The position numbers and the translations under genes were made by a program. A DNA stretch of 64,000 nucleotides from Escherichia coli. Its GTDB lineage: Bacteria; Pseudomonadota; Gammaproteobacteria; Enterobacterales; Enterobacteriaceae. Below the pieces are notes generated by a model that was not told the origin of the DNA, made no database searches, and saw only the letters and a list, made by a program, of their open reading frames with translations. This document shows, piece by piece, positions 10,427-42,515 of the stretch; position 1 is the first letter of the stretch, and every line of letters starts with the position of its first letter. The stretch is from NCBI RefSeq assembly GCF_046105845.1, contig NZ_CP151004.1, one strand, 5' to 3'.

Positions 10427-11287
10427 TTAAGATGCCTTTCTAATCAACCGATGCCCCTCATTCATCATCAGGATTTTGCTATACACATCTTCCTCGACGG
10501 CGTTTTTTGCTGATGCCATCACTCGTGCCAGATTCGCCTCGTTGTGATTATTCACATACGCTTTGCCGACGGCGGTGATAAACGCTTTGCGCAGATCGCT
10601 GGCGATATTTACTTTAGCGACGTGATAATTAACAAAGCTGCGCAATATCTCCGGGGCGATACCGGAGCCGCCGTGAATAACCAACGGCACCGGACAGACT
10701 TCGGCAATGCGCTTCAGCAAGGGGATATCGATCCGCGGTATATCGTCCAGACCATGAACGTTACCAATAGAAACTGCCAGCATGTCGCAACCGGTGCGCT
10801 CGACAAAGGTCTTCACCTTTTCCGGTTCCGTTTTGCAATCGGCTTCGCTGACGTGATCATCTTCTTTGCCGAGAATCGCCCCCAGCTCCGCTTCAACCGG
10901 TACGCCATAGGATTTACAGAAATCGACAGCTTCCTGGGTGAAAGCGATATTCTCTTCAAAAGAGAATGCGGCACCGTCAATCATGACCGAGGTAAAGCCC
11001 GCGCGCACCGCCTGTTTAACATCCTCCTGAGTTTTCCCGTGATCCAGATGAAGACTGACCGGAACATCCATTTTATCGGCGTGACGTTTCACGATTTCAT
11101 AAATGTAATCGTATCCCGAGAGTTGTGCATTGGTGGGCGCAATCTGAATGAAGTTGGGTAATCCTGAACGCTCAATGGCGTTTAAAATTGAAATCGTCGT
11201 CTCCAGATTGGTGGTATTAAACGCGCCCGCTAATACCCGTTTTTCCTGAATGCGGTCGAGCAGTATCCGTCCATTAACTAATGGCAT
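10427..11287 (-). CDS. Class II ketose-bisphosphate aldolase (FbaA/GatY/KbaY family)
   Basis: 286-aa ORF with LLDRIQEKRVLAGAFN, LHLDHG and VIHGGSG motifs typical of class II zinc aldolases; GAGG SD upstream. Confidence 0.8.
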   Translation of the reverse strand: MPLVNGRILLDRIQEKRVLAGAFNTTNLETTISILNAIERSGLPNFIQIAPTNAQLSGYDYIYEIVKRHADKMDVPVSLHLDHGKTQEDVKQAVRAGFTSVMIDGAAFSFEENIAFTQEAVDFCKSYGVPVEAELGAILGKEDDHVSEADCKTEPEKVKTFVERTGCDMLAVSIGNVHGLDDIPRIDIPLLKRIAEVCPVPLVIHGGSGIAPEILRSFVNYHVAKVNIASDLRKAFITAVGKAYVNNHNEANLARVMASAKNAVEEDVYSKILMMNEGHRLIRKAS

Positions 11288-11317
11288 TTGAAAACCTCAT
11301 CTTTTAATATCAGTTAA

Positions 11318-11587
11318 TTATTCAGCTTCACCGAAGCGGTCACGAAATAAGGCGGTGAGAGTTTGTATTGCCTCATTTTCATCATCGCCTTCGCAGCGTA
11401 TTTCCACCGTTTTACCGCCTTTTATTCCGGCGCGCATAATATTCATCATGCTGGTGGCATTAATATCATTACCCTCATAATGCAGCGTCACTTTACAGCT
11501 AAACTTTTTGGCGGCTTTTACCAGACAAGCCGCCGGACGTGCATGCAGGCCAGTACTGTTTCTGACCTCCACGGTTTTACTCAACAT
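11318..11587 (-). CDS. HPr-family phosphocarrier protein (operon-encoded HPr paralog)
   Basis: 89-aa ORF with GLHARPA (His15) and a Ser at position 46; GGAGG SD upstream; overlaps the 3' end of the kinase gene by 11 bp. Confidence 0.75.
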   Translation of the reverse strand: MLSKTVEVRNSTGLHARPAACLVKAAKKFSCKVTLHYEGNDINATSMMNIMRAGIKGGKTVEIRCEGDDENEAIQTLTALFRDRFGEAE

Positions 11588-13085
11588 AGTGCTCCTCCCG
11601 ATGGTGTAATGGCATCACGCCTTCTTGCTGTAATTTCAACTGATACCAGCTTTTCCATTTGTGCTGATAACGCTGTAATTGATGGTATCTCGCCCGATTC
11701 GGTAACAAACGTTGGGCTATGGTAACTTGCGGCGGTGGAATATCCGGTGCGGCAGTTAATAATGCTCCGACAGAAACCGCCTCGTTAAATGCAATTGCCT
11801 CAACCGGACGCTGTAAAATATCCGCCTTTAATTGCAGCCAAAGGGGATTATGGGTTGCCGGGCCGATTACTTTTAACGCGCTGGTGCCAGGCACATTAAA
11901 ACAGGCGAAGCAGTTGGCAAATTCCATGGTTAATCCCAGTGAGACGCTGGCAATTAACATGTCAATATTTAACGTATCGCTAAGCCCATAAAATAATCCA
12001 CGGGTATGGCGATTTTTATAGGGCGAACCCGAACCGCGAAGATGTGGAATAAAGAGGGGAATGTCATCGAGCGACCAGTTCCCCGCCAGGTAATCCGCAT
12101 GTCCGCGAGTAAGTGATGCGGCGATCTCCTCATCGGTTAGCCGGAACGTGTTACGCAGCCACTCCAGAGCGAAACCGCCCACGGGCAGCGACGCAAACAG
12201 GGTGAACTGGTTTGCAAGCGAATAACAGCCGTTTGCCAGCTTGTCACGTTTGGCCTGTTCATCCAGCGTCGGTTGTGTATCCAGTTGCAGAATGCCTTCT
12301 GTGGTCCCCGTCGAGTTAAGGATATCGCCCGGCATCATCTGCAACGCCCGTGCACCCACCATATGGTCATGTCCGGCCAGCGTCACGCTGACCGGTTGCG
12401 AGAACCCAAGCGTTTTGCAGAGCGACTCGCTGACCCATCCGGCGTGTTCGCCTGGCTGCACCAATGGCGCAAATGCTGAACAGGGAACGTGTAACAACGC
12501 CGCCGCTTTCGCTGACCATTCGCCTTTGCGCACGTCCAGACACAGCGTGCGGCTGGCTAAGGTGATATCCGTGCGCTGTTCGCCGGTCAGCCGCCAGAGC
12601 AGTACTTCCGGCGCATGTAGCCAACGCAGGCCGCGGCGATTACGCAGTGGGTAATGTTCCAGCAACCAACGCATTTTGAAGGCAGAGTAATTGCTGTGCA
12701 GCGGTAACCCGCAAATGTCATAAAGTGCCGCACTGTCTGCCTCGCTAAGTGTAGCCAGATACTCTTCACCGCGACGGTCATACCAGGCCAGCATTGGCGT
12801 CAGGATCTCGCCATGCTCGTCAAGGAACACGCCTGACTCGCCAAAACTGGCAATGCTTATCCGCCTGACTGGCAGCGGCGAAGCGGCGTTCAGTTGCGCT
12901 ATCGCCTGGCGGACCTCCTGCCAGAGGGCGTCGATATCGAAATCGACATCGCCCTGTGGGGAGATCTGTTTTGCCGTCACGAATTTATGCGCGCCCAACG
13001 TCGTTGCGTCCAGGCAGGAAAAGCAGGTGACTTTGCAATTGGTGGTGCCAATATCGATAACGATAGCTGCGCTGTTATCAGGCAT
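11577..13085 (-). CDS. FGGY-family carbohydrate kinase
   Basis: 502-aa ORF with N-terminal AIVIDIGTTNCKV (FGGY phosphate-1 motif) and two-domain actin-like fold size; overlaps the EIIC stop by 8 bp. Confidence 0.8.
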   Translation of the reverse strand: MPDNSAAIVIDIGTTNCKVTCFSCLDATTLGAHKFVTAKQISPQGDVDFDIDALWQEVRQAIAQLNAASPLPVRRISIASFGESGVFLDEHGEILTPMLAWYDRRGEEYLATLSEADSAALYDICGLPLHSNYSAFKMRWLLEHYPLRNRRGLRWLHAPEVLLWRLTGEQRTDITLASRTLCLDVRKGEWSAKAAALLHVPCSAFAPLVQPGEHAGWVSESLCKTLGFSQPVSVTLAGHDHMVGARALQMMPGDILNSTGTTEGILQLDTQPTLDEQAKRDKLANGCYSLANQFTLFASLPVGGFALEWLRNTFRLTDEEIAASLTRGHADYLAGNWSLDDIPLFIPHLRGSGSPYKNRHTRGLFYGLSDTLNIDMLIASVSLGLTMEFANCFACFNVPGTSALKVIGPATHNPLWLQLKADILQRPVEAIAFNEAVSVGALLTAAPDIPPPQVTIAQRLLPNRARYHQLQRYQHKWKSWYQLKLQQEGVMPLHHREEHYVE

Positions 13086-14436
13086 AAACCGTGCTCCGCG
13101 TCATTCGGAAAATACCATACAGTACCAGGGCGATAACCGGCACCAGACCAATGGCGATGAGATTGCCGTTGAAGATTTCCAGCAGCCAGAAGCGGAACGG
13201 GTTACCGCCATCAAGGAAACTGGAGACCTGGCCGCTGGAGCCTTCGGCAAATTTGAAATTAACGTCTTTCGCCATTCCGGTAATAAACGGCGCGATTTTA
13301 GTCGCAATCCACAGATCGGCAATAATCACCGGGATCGCCGCCAGAACGGTGCGGAAAATGTTGCCACGGCTGGCTAAAGCAATCATCGACGCCATTACCG
13401 CCAGGTTGGCAAGGTCGCCAAGCGGCAGGACTTCATTACCCGGAAGGACAAACGCGATAAAGACCGAGATTGGCGTCAGCAGCAGGGCGGTGGAGATAAT
13501 CGCCGGGTTACCTACGGCAACGGCGATATCCAGGCCGATATAGAGATCGTCACGGTCAGGGTATTTGGCATTGAGATACTTTTTAATGGCTTCAGACAGC
13601 GGTAATAAACCTTCCATCAGGATGCGTACCATGCGTGGCAGGATGAACATCACACCGCCAATGCTGATGCCAAGCAGCAAGACTTTTTTGAAATCGTATC
13701 CGGCAATTACGCCGAGCAGAATGCCCAGAATAGTACCAACCATCATCGGTTCGCCGAATATGCCAAACTTTTTCTGTACGGTTTCCGGATCGATATGAAT
13801 ACGATTGAGGCCGGGGATATGGTCGATGATTTTGTCGACCAGCAGACCGACCGGAAAGAACACCACCGAAGAGAGCGTCGGCAATGAGATCCCTTCCAGG
13901 CCAAAGTATTTTTGTACCAGTGGCGCAGACCAGTCGGCGAGTTTAAGTACTACCACCGCAGCAATCGCCGCCGCCAGTAAACCAAAAAACAGGCTGCCGG
14001 TGCTGTAATAAACCAGCGTACCAGCAAGGGCAAAATGCCAGTAGTTCCACATATCTACATCAACGGTGCGGGTTTTATTTAACGCCAGCATCGCCACGTT
14101 AATCAGAATAGTCAGGGGAATAACAAACGGGGCAATTGGCGAACCCCATGTAATAGCGGAAAGCGGCGGCCAGCCTAAATCCACCACCGGTAAATTAATT
14201 CCGGTGCGTTCAACCATCGCCTGGGCCGCTGGCCCGACATTGCTGGTAAGAATATCGAAAATGGCATAAATACCGACAAAACCAATGCCGACCGTTAATG
14301 ACGAACGTAAGGCTTTAGCGGGTTTTACTTTAAAACAGAGAGCAAGAATAAATAACACCAACGGCAACATTACCGTGGGACCAAATCCCAATATATATTG
14401 CACTATATTATAGAGGGTATGCGCGATATCGTTCAT
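13078..14436 (-). CDS. PTS galactitol-family EIIC permease
   Basis: Track ORF 13078..14466 (GTG); start refined to ATG 14436 with AAGAGG SD; multi-TM protein colinear with GatC (LGPTVMLP, GIGFVGI, GEP motifs). Confidence 0.85.
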   Translation of the reverse strand: MNDIAHTLYNIVQYILGFGPTVMLPLVLFILALCFKVKPAKALRSSLTVGIGFVGIYAIFDILTSNVGPAAQAMVERTGINLPVVDLGWPPLSAITWGSPIAPFVIPLTILINVAMLALNKTRTVDVDMWNYWHFALAGTLVYYSTGSLFFGLLAAAIAAVVVLKLADWSAPLVQKYFGLEGISLPTLSSVVFFPVGLLVDKIIDHIPGLNRIHIDPETVQKKFGIFGEPMMVGTILGILLGVIAGYDFKKVLLLGISIGGVMFILPRMVRILMEGLLPLSEAIKKYLNAKYPDRDDLYIGLDIAVAVGNPAIISTALLLTPISVFIAFVLPGNEVLPLGDLANLAVMASMIALASRGNIFRTVLAAIPVIIADLWIATKIAPFITGMAKDVNFKFAEGSSGQVSSFLDGGNPFRFWLLEIFNGNLIAIGLVPVIALVLYGIFRMTRSTVYA

Positions 14437-14450
14437 AATAAACCTCTTTT

Positions 14451-14483
14451 TCAGGCGAGAGCGCACCTCGCGTTAGCGCCTGA
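14451..14483 (-). other. Intra-operon stem-loop between PTS EIIB and EIIC genes
   Basis: TCAGGCG...CGCCTGA 7-bp stem enclosing a GC-rich sub-hairpin, in the 76-bp EIIB-EIIC spacer. Confidence 0.35.
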
Positions 14484-14512
14484 TGGAGTGGGTTGAAATT
14501 AATTATTATTAA

Positions 14513-14794
14513 TTACTTTTTAAGGATCGAAACAATTTGCGCCAGTACTTTCTCTTCGCCAATACCGGTAATAATCGGCAAGCCGTTAACCACCGGGACG
14601 TCGAGTTCATAAGGCACTTTAGTCGTTGAGACTACCAGTGCTACGCCATCAGTATTTCCAGGTAAAGAGGCAACGTTGGTTTGGGAATAATTGACGTTAA
14701 GACCGTGCTCTTTACAATATTCCATGACTTTTTCTGTTACCGCCGTGGATGTGGCAATACCCGTGGCGCAGACAAATAAAATGGTTTGACTCAT
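14513..14794 (-). CDS. PTS galactitol-family EIIB component
   Basis: 93-aa ORF with ILFVCATGIATS (phosphoryl-Cys loop) resembling GatB. Confidence 0.8.
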   Translation of the reverse strand: MSQTILFVCATGIATSTAVTEKVMEYCKEHGLNVNYSQTNVASLPGNTDGVALVVSTTKVPYELDVPVVNGLPIITGIGEEKVLAQIVSILKK

Positions 14795-15264
14795 ATTTCA
14801 CCTCGTTCTTTCATTTTGTTTAAGATTACTGTGTGTATTTCTGTTGTTTCCATCGTAAGCAGGGCGCGCATAAAGGGCGTATCCTGAATCATCTCCATAA
14901 TCCAGCCCAGGGCATTTAATTGTTTATTACTTTCGCTTAAGGCGAGCAAAAAAATCACCCTGACAGGTACGGGGTCAGGATCGCCGCCCATATCGGCAAA
15001 CTCTACCGGTTCCGGCAGGATGCCGACGGCAATTGCATTGTGCCTGACATGTTTATGGTCCGTGTGCGGAATGGCGACACACGGTGGTTCGGTAGGCAGC
15101 CCCGTTGGGTACGTCGCCTCACGTTTCAGTACGTGATCGGCAAAATCAGGGACCACCAGCTCGGCGGCAACCAACGGTTGCGCTAACTGACGGATGATCT
15201 GTTCAACGCTTAACCCTGCCGGAAGTCGTTGAATATAATTTTCCTGAAACTGTATGCCTTGCAT
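14791..15264 (-). CDS. PTS EIIA component (mannitol/fructose/galactitol type fold)
   Basis: 157-aa ORF with CVAIPHTDHKH active-site His region resembling GatA; 4-bp overlap with the EIIB start. Confidence 0.8.
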   Translation of the reverse strand: MQGIQFQENYIQRLPAGLSVEQIIRQLAQPLVAAELVVPDFADHVLKREATYPTGLPTEPPCVAIPHTDHKHVRHNAIAVGILPEPVEFADMGGDPDPVPVRVIFLLALSESNKQLNALGWIMEMIQDTPFMRALLTMETTEIHTVILNKMKERGEI

Positions 15265-15288: not shown

Positions 15289-16035
15289 TTAACTCACTTC
15301 CCGCCGTTGCAGCACGGTGCCCAGATAATATTTATTTCCTTTTAACCAGACGTTGCCAAACTCAACGGGTAACTCTCGGGAGAAAAAGACTAACTGCTCC
15401 AGATGCAAAACGGGTGCATCTTCACTGATATCTAAAAAATGACCGCGTTCATTACCAATTAATCGCGCGGCATAGCGACTTTCAGAGTAACGAATTTTTC
15501 TTTGCGACAAACTTTCTATTGTTGGAAATAAATTGTGTTGATTAAAATCGATTTCCACGATGCCGGGACATAGCTCAATATTGATACGGTTCTCTATCAG
15601 CATCGCTTTTTCATCACCAATTGAACGTAACCGCTCAAGGTAAAGAATATCCTGACCGGGCGTTATTCTTAATTTCTCTGCCACATAACGATTAGCCGGT
15701 TCAATCCGTGACGTAATAACTTCAGTGGTAAAGTGTATTTTCTGGCTTTCCAGCGATTCCGCGAATGACAATAATCCTTCACCTAACGGATATGCCACGT
15801 TCTCTTTTTTGACAAATGTTCCCTTCCCCTGGACCTGAATCAACACGCCTTCTTTTACCAGTTGGGCGACCGCTTTTTTAACGGTTCCCCGACTCACTTC
15901 CAGCATATCCATAATCTGGTATTCCGAAGGAATGCGATCGTCTTCCACCAGATCCCCGGTATAAATACTTTCTCTTATCCACTCCACCACTTGTTGATAG
16001 AGCGGTATTTGTGACGACTTACTTAATGATTTCAT
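15289..16035 (-). CDS. GntR/HutC-family transcriptional regulator (HTH + UTRA effector domain)
   Basis: Track ORF 15289..16044 (GTG); start refined to ATG 16035 (AGGTG upstream); N-terminal wHTH (IPSEYQIMDMLEVSRGTVKKAVAQLVKEGVL) and C-terminal UTRA-like domain. Confidence 0.8.
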   Translation of the reverse strand: MKSLSKSSQIPLYQQVVEWIRESIYTGDLVEDDRIPSEYQIMDMLEVSRGTVKKAVAQLVKEGVLIQVQGKGTFVKKENVAYPLGEGLLSFAESLESQKIHFTTEVITSRIEPANRYVAEKLRITPGQDILYLERLRSIGDEKAMLIENRINIELCPGIVEIDFNQHNLFPTIESLSQRKIRYSESRYAARLIGNERGHFLDISEDAPVLHLEQLVFFSRELPVEFGNVWLKGNKYYLGTVLQRREVS

Positions 16036-16058
16036 GGCGCGCACCTGAACATTTACAG

Positions 16059-16072
16059 TTGTCTATGGACAA
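16059..16072. promoter_or_regulatory. Palindrome TTGTC-TATG-GACAA upstream of the island GntR/HutC regulator gene; candidate operator
   Basis: Perfect 5-bp inverted arms 24 bp upstream of the regulator ATG, followed by a third TGGACAA half-site at 16076-16082. Confidence 0.4.
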
Positions 16073-16233
16073 TCATGGACAACTTCAAGCGTATAGTAGG
16101 TGAACGGGAGAAAAAGAGGATCGAAGCGTCTCACATTTTGAGGGACCAAATCGTGATCAAAAAAATGTGACGTGAGTCGATATTTGTCAGAAGTTTACTG
16201 CGCCGTAAGGAAATAACGGCGCGTTGGTAGGTG

Positions 16234-41801: not shown

Positions 41802-42515
41802 ATGGAAAAAGTCATGTTGTCCTTTGACAAAGTCAGCGCCCACTACGGCAAAATCCAGGCGCTGCATGAGGTGAGCCTGCATATCAATCAGGGCGAGATT
41901 GTCACCCTGATTGGCGCGAACGGGGCGGGGAAAACCACCTTGCTCGGCACGTTATGCGGCGACCCACGCGCCACCAGCGGGCGAATTGTGTTTGATGATA
42001 AAGACATTACCGACTGGCAGACGGCGAAAATCATGCGCGAAGCGGTAGCGATTGTCCCGGAAGGGCGTCGCGTCTTCTCGCGCATGACGGTGGAAGAGAA
42101 TCTGGCGATGGGCGGCTTTTTTGCTGAACGCGACCAGTTCCAGGAGCGCATAAAGTGGGTGTATGAACTGTTTCCGCGTCTCCATGAACGCCGTGTTCAG
42201 CGGGCGGGAACCATGTCCGGCGGTGAGCAGCAGATGCTGGCGATTGGGCGCGCGCTGATGAGCAATCCGCGTTTATTGTTGCTTGATGAGCCATCGCTCG
42301 GTCTTGCGCCGATTATCATCCAGCAGATTTTCGACACCATCGAGCAGCTGCGCGAGCAGGGGATGACCATCTTCCTCGTCGAGCAGAACGCCAACCAGGC
42401 GCTGAAGCTCGCTGATCGCGGCTACGTGCTGGAAAACGGTCATGTGGTGCTCTCCGATACCGGCGATGCGCTGCTGGCAAACGAAGCGGTGAGAAGTGCG
42501 TATTTAGGCGGGTAA
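41802..42515 (+). CDS. livF: Branched-chain amino acid ABC ATPase LivF
   Basis: Track ORF 41790..42515; start refined to ATG 41802 (MEKVMLSFDKVSAHYGKIQAL...); ABC ATPase (GANGAGKTT). Confidence 0.93.
   Translation: MEKVMLSFDKVSAHYGKIQALHEVSLHINQGEIVTLIGANGAGKTTLLGTLCGDPRATSGRIVFDDKDITDWQTAKIMREAVAIVPEGRRVFSRMTVEENLAMGGFFAERDQFQERIKWVYELFPRLHERRVQRAGTMSGGEQQMLAIGRALMSNPRLLLLDEPSLGLAPIIIQQIFDTIEQLREQGMTIFLVEQNANQALKLADRGYVLENGHVVLSDTGDALLANEAVRSAYLGG

Follow-up and report, generated by a model that had tools for sequence, protein, structure and literature searches.

A helically phased array of TTGT boxes as the candidate operator of a GntR/HutC-type regulator heading an accessory sugar operon of Escherichia coli

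The best functionally characterized relative in the PDB of the regulator described here is NagR (YvoA), matched with an E value of 3e-21, which together with DasR has the same layout of a wHTH and a UTRA domain. NagR is a repressor that is released by sugar phosphates (PMC4333415). In the NagR-DNA structures 4U0V and 4WWC, each GntR-type wHTH reads a 4-nt box, the two boxes lying 6 nt apart, and the contacts are made by an arginine at the start of the recognition helix, an arginine at the start of helix 2, and a glycine of the wing that enters the minor groove; Arg48 recognizes the half-site G, with Gly69 as the wing contact (PMC4333415). AraR, which carries a GntR-type DNA-binding domain, accepts half-sites that are 6 or 8 nt apart (PMC4333415). 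Suvorova et al. 2015 describe GntR-family palindromes flanked, at one side or at both, by an additional and weaker half-site, and proposed that such boxes recruit further subunits (PMC4494728).

The regulator considered here is encoded on the minus strand of the window, the whole 64-kb stretch of E. coli DNA that was analyzed, as part of an operon of seven genes that all lie on that strand, 3' of nikABCDE-nikR and ahead of hicAB and yhhJ. The genes are as follows.

15289-16035, minus strand: GntR/HutC-family regulator of 248 amino acids, first gene of the operon, matching PF00392 and PF07702
14791-15264, minus strand: EIIA
14513-14794, minus strand: EIIB
13078-14466, minus strand: EIIC-Gat (Gat-family EIIC)
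11577-13085, minus strand: FGGY kinase
11318-11587, minus strand: HPr-like protein
10427-11287, minus strand: class II ketose-bisphosphate aldolase
10427-15264, minus strand: the putatively regulated structural genes together, a gene set shared with the regulator from Enterobacterales to Firmicutes

The regulator gene is placed first in the operon because EIIA begins only 24 nt past its stop codon, and the space for a promoter is confined to the 198-bp intergenic region at 16036-16233, which is 100% identical to that of O157:H7 strains. The island is found in 1635 to 1637 of 5426 complete E. coli genomes (about 30%), O157:H7 included. It is not the vpe operon, an identification that was rejected since the vpe locus lies in another region, adjoining deoK. 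The hicA/hicB toxin-antitoxin pair at 9791-10377 is flanked by the aldolase gene and yhhJ; lying at the far edge of the island, it may mark the island boundary. At the other end, a hairpin GCGCCGT-N9-ACGGCGC without a T-run lies at 16200-16222, right after nikR; it was not called as an intrinsic terminator, and read-through from nikR into the island operon is therefore possible. For the kinase, no NCBIfam match reaches its cutoff; the aldolase exceeds that of the generic class II aldolase model but of no substrate-specific NCBIfam model, and a PDB search returned no close homologue of either enzyme.

The regulator itself is a bona fide member of the GntR/HutC subfamily by its domain matches, with a GntR wHTH at residues 12-75 (PF00392, E 4e-16, 58.8 bits against a cutoff of 27 bits) and a UTRA domain, the effector domain of chorismate-lyase fold, at residues 98-236 (PF07702, E 1e-26). 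It scored under the cutoff of every named NCBIfam equivalog to which it was compared (HutC, PhnF, TreR, LSA1692, and the MngR-like PRK09764 and PRK11402), its best NCBIfam match being NF041547 at 119 bits against a cutoff of 275, so it represents an unnamed orthologous group. The searchable literature yielded no description of the regulator, the operon, or the motif discussed below, and no binding, expression, or TSS data for the regulator or its operator. PDB entry 3HFI ("putative regulator," 170 amino acids) corresponds to the effector domain of this very protein, residues 79-248 (15289-15801; E 8e-109); the structure carries no functional assignment and would be usable for docking or ligand screening. 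A metagenomic protein of 388 amino acids (P0002) consists of the regulator, at 100% identity, fused to an EIIA domain, and this fusion probably reflects a frameshift or read-through over the 24-nt gap.

On the plus strand, positions 16059-16082 read TTGTCTATGGACAATCATGGACAA. The original prediction had pointed to TTGTC-TATG-GACAA with an extra TGGACAA upstream of the regulator start, and both are present there as described. The 14-bp palindrome occupies 16059-16072 within this motif, and ATGGACAA occurs twice, 10 bp apart, at 16065-16072 and 16075-16082. The motif lies 24 to 47 nt 5' of the regulator ATG (16035-16033, minus strand), between a conserved -10 box and the start codon of the GntR-plus-UTRA gene. 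In the direction of transcription it reads G-TTGTCCATGA-TTGTCCATAG-ACAAC, with 22 nt between its end and the start codon. Comparison with related promoters, given below, places it in a frame of 10-bp boxes, and these are listed here with the features upstream of them.

16073-16082, minus strand: operator box 1, TTGTCCATGA, a direct-repeat half-site, the "extra TGGACAA" of the original prediction
16063-16072, minus strand: operator box 2, TTGTCCATAG, left arm of the 14-bp palindrome TTGTCCATAGACAA (16059-16072)
16053-16062, minus strand: operator box 3, ACAACTGTAA, an inverted TTGT box, right arm of the palindrome
16043-16052, minus strand: candidate operator box 4, ATGTTCAGGT, overlapping the Shine-Dalgarno sequence AGGTG (16042-16046)
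16093-16098, minus strand: inferred -10 hexamer TACTAT, a TAnnAT footprint conserved in 20 aligned upstream regions
16120-16135, minus strand: candidate proximal CRP site TGTGAGACGCTTCGAT, centered at -41.5 from the predicted TSS
16166-16181, no strand assigned: candidate distal CRP site, TGTGACGTGAGTCGAT on the plus strand, centered near -87.5

In the 10-bp frame, the E. coli element runs from 16082 down to 16043 as TTGTCCATGA, TTGTCCATAG, ACAACTGTAA, ATGTTCAGGT. Across 18 promoter instances, T1, T2, and G3 of box 1 are invariant, and the G of each box is strongly kept, being found at position 3 in 18/18 instances, at position 13 in 16/18, and at position 33 in 15/18; box 3 has G at position 23 when direct and C at position 22 when inverted. 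Boxes 1 and 2 are direct repeats with 10-bp spacing in 16/18 instances, and the TTGT of box 2 is invariant in the 16-sequence alignment A1. Several genera carry a perfect palindrome, TTGTCTATAGACAA, as the core. Box 4, which the original prediction had missed, stands in phase 20 bp beyond box 2 as an invariant ATGTTCA ahead of the ribosome-binding site, with T34 kept in 14/18 instances, and its block is 95% identical within the closest group of orthologous loci. Since box 4 overlaps the ribosome-binding site, its conservation may be translational in cause. Read from the sequence, the candidate operator is a helically phased array of about 40 bp, at 16043-16082 (16083 with the flanking G), in the order direct, direct, inverted, direct, boxes 2 and 3 making the palindrome TTGTCCATAGACAA.

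A strict sigma-70 scan of the intergenic region found no full -35/-10 pair and no terminator, and the E. coli -10 box was for that reason derived from conservation; it predicts a TSS near 16086. The array begins 4 to 10 nt past the -10 box in 18/18 promoter instances, with this conservation-derived box used for E. coli, and box 1 begins about 4 nt past the predicted TSS. The lack of a recognizable -35 box in E. coli counts against the operator model, and it fits an activator-dependent promoter. The missing -35, the TGTGA half-site at -41.5, and the CRP-type site near -87.5 together make activation by CRP likely, and CRP-cAMP bound at the upstream sites probably activates the promoter. In the proximal candidate, placed relative to the predicted TSS, the AAAATGTGA half is kept in all loci of the closest group and the right half is weak. 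The distal site is a near-perfect TGTGA-N6-TCACA in most orthologues, such as TGTGATGTTCATCACA in Klebsiella oxytoca (L012), and has decayed in E. coli to TGTGA-N6-TCGAT; CRP-type sites also occur in loci L005-L019 and L028, about 100 to 150 nt 5' of the regulator ATG. Between the two CRP-like sites, at 16136-16160 (minus strand, TTGATCACGATTTGGTCCCTCAAAA), lies a conserved TGATC, containing the Dam site GATC, adjoined by an imperfect inverted repeat TTTGn5-6CAAAA, and this region may be a site for a further regulator. Near the start codon, at 16024-16049 (minus strand, TTCAGGTGCGCGCCATGAA), the last 17 nt 5' of the ATG are invariant across genera and include GGTGCGC(G/A)CC, a 10-bp palindrome in its A variant. 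A small hairpin predicted there would sequester the Shine-Dalgarno sequence and the AUG, with the G/A polymorphism keeping a U-G or U-A pair, and translational control of the regulator through this predicted hairpin is possible.

Simple counts within the window say little about the motif. The sequence TTGTCNNNNGACAA at up to one mismatch has 3 matches against 2.2 expected, and ATGGACAA alone likewise has 3 against 2.2, so the counts of palindrome and half-site were rejected as evidence by themselves. A second exact TTGTC-N4-GACAA at 41817 falls within the first codons of livF and was set aside as a chance match. The composite TTGT-N6-TTGT-N6-ACAA is rare, occurring once in the window with 0.24 expected even when one mismatch is allowed. 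A chance palindrome without function would agree with the unenriched simple patterns and with the second copy in livF, and the comparison of orthologous loci decides against it.

That comparison, with one genome per species, gave 28 loci with regulators 66 to 100% identical to that of E. coli. They fall into a group 1, with 83 to 100% regulator identity, and a group 2, with 66 to 70%. Group 1 includes Escherichia, Citrobacter, Enterobacter, Klebsiella oxytoca, Pantoea, Rahnella, Cedecea, Trabulsiella, Mangrovibacter, Izhakiella, Winslowiella, Phytobacter, and others, and its loci carry the same operon in differing chromosomal contexts. Their upstream regions show a common series of footprints, namely the distal CRP-type site, TGATC, AAAATGTGA, and the TAnnAT -10 box, then the block GTTGTACATGATTGTCYATAGACAAC, five variable bases, and ATGTTCAGGTGCGCRCC-ATG. 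As mean pairwise identities over 17 non-redundant group-1 loci from more than a dozen enterobacterial genera, both the 26-nt block and the last 17 nt before the ATG reach 0.95, the linker 0.71, the promoter spacer 0.44, and third codon positions 0.50. Within E. coli, 9/9 intergenic SNPs lie upstream of the -10 box. The pattern TTGT-N6-TTGT-N6-ACAA occurs once per enterobacterial locus, always 47 nt before the regulator ATG, and once in the Firmicute locus L049, 62 nt before the ATG; it is found nowhere else in the 52 loci compared. The original prediction had named absence of the motif from orthologous loci as one finding that would speak against it, and the motif occupies the same place in every orthologous locus. 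Because it is conserved and recurs in this way, the motif is more than a chance sequence. Conservation of 95% against about 50% for neutral positions, the fixed position in more than 20 loci, and the recurrence at independent promoters leave a functionless palindrome with a negligible probability, and on the strength of the conservation we take chance to be excluded.

The independent promoters are those of group 2, consisting of Raoultella, Enterobacter spp., and Superficieibacter, in which the genes are split into two units, one of EIIA-EIIB-EIIC-FGGY with a GatD-like Zn-dehydrogenase and one of regulator-aldolase-HPr. The EIIA promoter of these loci carries TTGAACATGGTTGTACATAGACAA with a CRP site ahead of it, and the regulator promoter carries a weaker version, TTGTTCATACTTGTATACAGATGA. 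A PWM built from group 1 ranked the site upstream of EIIA first in 7/7 group-2 loci scanned (24.6 to 29.1 bits) and the site upstream of the regulator second in 6/7. Conversely, a PWM built from the group-2 EIIA sites, and thus from other genomes only, gave 16059-16082 a score of 23.7 bits with the next best site in the 64 kb at 9.9, which leaves this site as the sole outlier in the window. The expectation that matching half-sites would also stand upstream of EIIA holds in the split-operon relatives and fails in this genome, where the PWM scan found no operator for EIIA in the 24-nt gap and no other high-scoring site in the operon or the window. A candidate at 15229 was rejected as noise, scoring 8.2 to 9.6 bits on the wrong strand and within the EIIA coding sequence. 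As EIIA has no promoter of its own, a single operator would serve the whole operon in E. coli. The GatD-like Zn-dependent dehydrogenase follows the FGGY kinase in the split-operon relatives L021-L029 (5778-6812) and in L048 (4808-5845), and this extra enzyme suggests a polyol as the substrate taken up by the split versions and the corresponding ketose as that of the E. coli version.

More distant homologues, at 52 to 62% regulator identity, come from Enterococcus, Clostridium, Caldibacillus, Niallia, other Firmicutes, and a gammaproteobacterial MAG, and most of them keep the regulator, the aldolase, EIIA, EIIB, EIIC, and the FGGY kinase. One further homologue, P0120, has no contig on record and stands outside the locus comparison. 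The Firmicute homologues with the same operon (52 to 57% identity) show 3 to 5 TTGT boxes with 10-bp spacing right behind a promoter matching the consensus at 10/12 positions, TTTACT-17-TATAAT in L046 and TTTACA-17-TACAAT in L051. Representative arrays are given here by locus.

L046: TTGTACATAG TTGTATATAG ATGTCTATAG TTGTGTACAA TTGT...
L045: TTGTACATGG TTGTCTATAG TTGTCCATGG TCGTGTACAA
L049: TTGTACACGG TTGTATATAG ACAACTATAG TTGTACACAT, an E. coli-like pattern
L048: four direct TTGT boxes 5' of each of two different EIIA genes

The ACAA of box 3 is thus kept in Enterobacterales and one Firmicute (L049), and the box is a direct TTGT or ATGT in L045, L046, L051, and the L048 EIIA promoters, loci that carry four or five direct boxes. 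Because box 3 is direct in most Firmicute homologues, the palindrome is only a part, or a lineage-specific aspect, of the element. In L048, a second EIIA-EIIB-EIIC set has a four-box array of its own. The Enterococcus regulator of L045, annotated with 264 amino acids, begins with an N-terminal extension, MVVYSCPWSCTKIVEVV (7001-7070), that is the translated operator array; its true start probably lies about 20 codons downstream, which would make the annotated start wrong. The homologue L050, at 56% identity, has no TTGT array upstream of its gene, which counts against the operator model. Its upstream region (5830-6000) instead contains ATAACA-TGC-TGTTAT, with ACA and TGT in the reverse arrangement, and its operator may have diverged.

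These arrays also bear on what else the repeats might be. If they formed a second promoter, TTGTnC would be its -35-like element and TATAG its -10-like one, and within the arrays of L046 and L051 a scan does find TGTACA-18-TATAGT (9/12), but promoter-like matches in these two loci are no more frequent than in shuffled sequences, and neither the window nor K. oxytoca contains such a pair. Promoters do not show up to five boxes in strict 10-bp phase, nor an inverted box, and we consider this reading extremely improbable. An RNA element would be a hairpin in the 5' UTR, UUGUC-CAUA-GACAA or an outer GUUGUC/GACAAC stem, acting on stability, translation, or attenuation. The array would indeed be transcribed, as it lies downstream of the inferred TSS, and the minimum-free-energy fold pairs the outer arms; this fold is nevertheless not significantly stable (z = -1.7, with 14/200 shuffles folding at least as well), an Rfam search gave no match, and an alignment of 16 promoter instances contains no compensatory change at any pair, with a covariation score no higher than that of shuffles. 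The all-direct arrays of several Firmicute promoters and of L048 cannot form the hairpin, yet they keep the TTGT boxes, which makes an RNA element very unlikely.

A third possibility is that the boxes are bound by another transcription factor, such as a global or PTS-linked regulator. In favor of it, the further conserved blocks of the promoter (TGATC, TTTGn5-6CAAAA, and TGTGA) show that more factors act here. However, the motif accompanies the regulator gene in Enterobacterales and Firmicutes alike, which differ in their global regulators, and this makes another factor unlikely. The regulator is also the sole transcription factor gene common to all clusters, and the TTGT and ACAA half-sites agree with the GT/AC core of GntR-family sites. 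Loci that share the motif have the same DNA-binding residues throughout, with VSRGTVKKAV as recognition helix and VQVQGKGTFVKKE as wing in both group 1 and group 2. We would give a different protein only a slim chance of being the one that reads these boxes.

The reading that we favor is that the motif is the core of the operator by which the adjacent HutC-type regulator represses its own seven-gene operon, and from the sequence evidence assembled here we hold this to be likely. What is observed directly is the sequence of the motif and where it lies, how well it is conserved, that it recurs at independent promoters, and which domains the protein contains; with 95% conservation of the block, these observations lend in silico support to the original proposal of an autoregulatory operator for the HutC regulator of the island. 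The binding, stoichiometry, sign of regulation, inducer, and TSS that we infer would fit together as follows. Each wHTH would read one TTGT box through the conserved arginine of VSRGTV and the glycine-containing wing, and two dimers, or a tetramer or dimer of dimers, would line one face of the DNA over the four phased boxes. Counted from the TSS near 16086, the array would span about +5 to +44, a typical position for a repressor, and the bound protein would block RNA polymerase. A phosphorylated sugar intermediate of the pathway would bind the UTRA domain and release the repressor, with CRP-cAMP upstream activating the promoter. Direct repeats pose a difficulty for a symmetric dimer, and this too counts against the operator model. 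Apart from the phased boxes, the arrangement is that of a standard repressor and operator.

A broader and more tentative suggestion, which we put forward as possible and on balance doubtful, is that the operator grammar of the whole orthologous group is a phased array of four to five single-G TTGT boxes whose orientation flips between lineages. If true, the flexibly tethered wHTHs of at least two dimers would bind one DNA face largely regardless of box orientation, and an array reaching from the TSS through the ribosome-binding site would control a sugar pathway of PTS, FGGY kinase, and class II aldolase that is conserved from Firmicutes to about 30% of E. coli, O157:H7 included. Phased boxes with one of variable orientation would offer a natural test case for HutC-family dimers on non-palindromic DNA. 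More immediately, the analysis provides a precise candidate operator for the regulator of an accessory carbohydrate operon for which the effector-domain structure 3HFI exists, and a reporter built directly on this operator and its promoter could reveal the inducing sugar in a screen, by which the pathway would be assigned.

Among known operators, those of HutC (TTGTMTAKACAA, for example ATTGTATAGACAAT) come from the same protein subfamily and have near-identical arms, TTGT(A/C)TA and TAGACAA. The short GT/AC palindrome expected for a HutC-type regulator is accordingly borne out in its arms, and those of TTGTCCATAGACAA match the canonical HutC operator NyGTMTAKACNy, but the spacing fails, with GT and AC 6 nt apart and not 4, and the four-box array is longer. 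The classical HutC site is 12 bp (GT-N4-AC), whereas the site here has two more central base pairs (GT-N6-AC), and this gap of 6 against 4 in most HutC operators also counts against the operator model. The placing of the canonical HutC operator, overlapping or just downstream of the core promoter, is the same here. The regulator scores 103 bits with the HutC equivalog model against a cutoff of 220. A precedent for the added 2 bp is the variable spacing of AraR, a member of another subfamily with an effector domain of LacI type.

Direct-repeat operators have been reported for MngR (FarR: TGTATTAWTT) and NagQ (TGGTATT), and the units here are also directly repeated. The FarR unit has 10 nt with TGT at its start, resembling the TTGTACATRG found here. 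MngR also controls a PTS operon. The locus differs from MngR and NagQ in its unit sequence, in having up to four or five units, and in that one unit is invertible. As for extra half-sites, Suvorova et al. 2015 place such boxes 7 to 12 nt from the site center and describe them as weaker, whereas here they lie about 13 to 15 nt away and are as conserved as the palindrome (PMC4494728). The motif was not found among the HutC sites in the accessible part of the tables of that survey.

NagR offers a further close parallel. Its dre site GTGG-TCTAGA-CCAC and the TTGT-CCATAG-ACAA found here are both 14-bp palindromes of 4-nt boxes with a 6-nt gap, and in a by-eye sequence comparison the recognition-helix arginine (of VSRGTV) and the wing glycine (of QGKGTF) are kept. 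In contrast to NagR, each half-site here contains only one G (TTGT in place of GTGG/TGGT) and the equivalent of Arg38 is Tyr, Phe, or Asn, and the lack of this second arginine would match a single-G box rather than a two-G box. The GT...AC pair of the family is 6 nt apart here instead of 4, and extra phased boxes lie on both sides. With these differences, operator and regulator are an uncharacterized member of a well-known type of switch.
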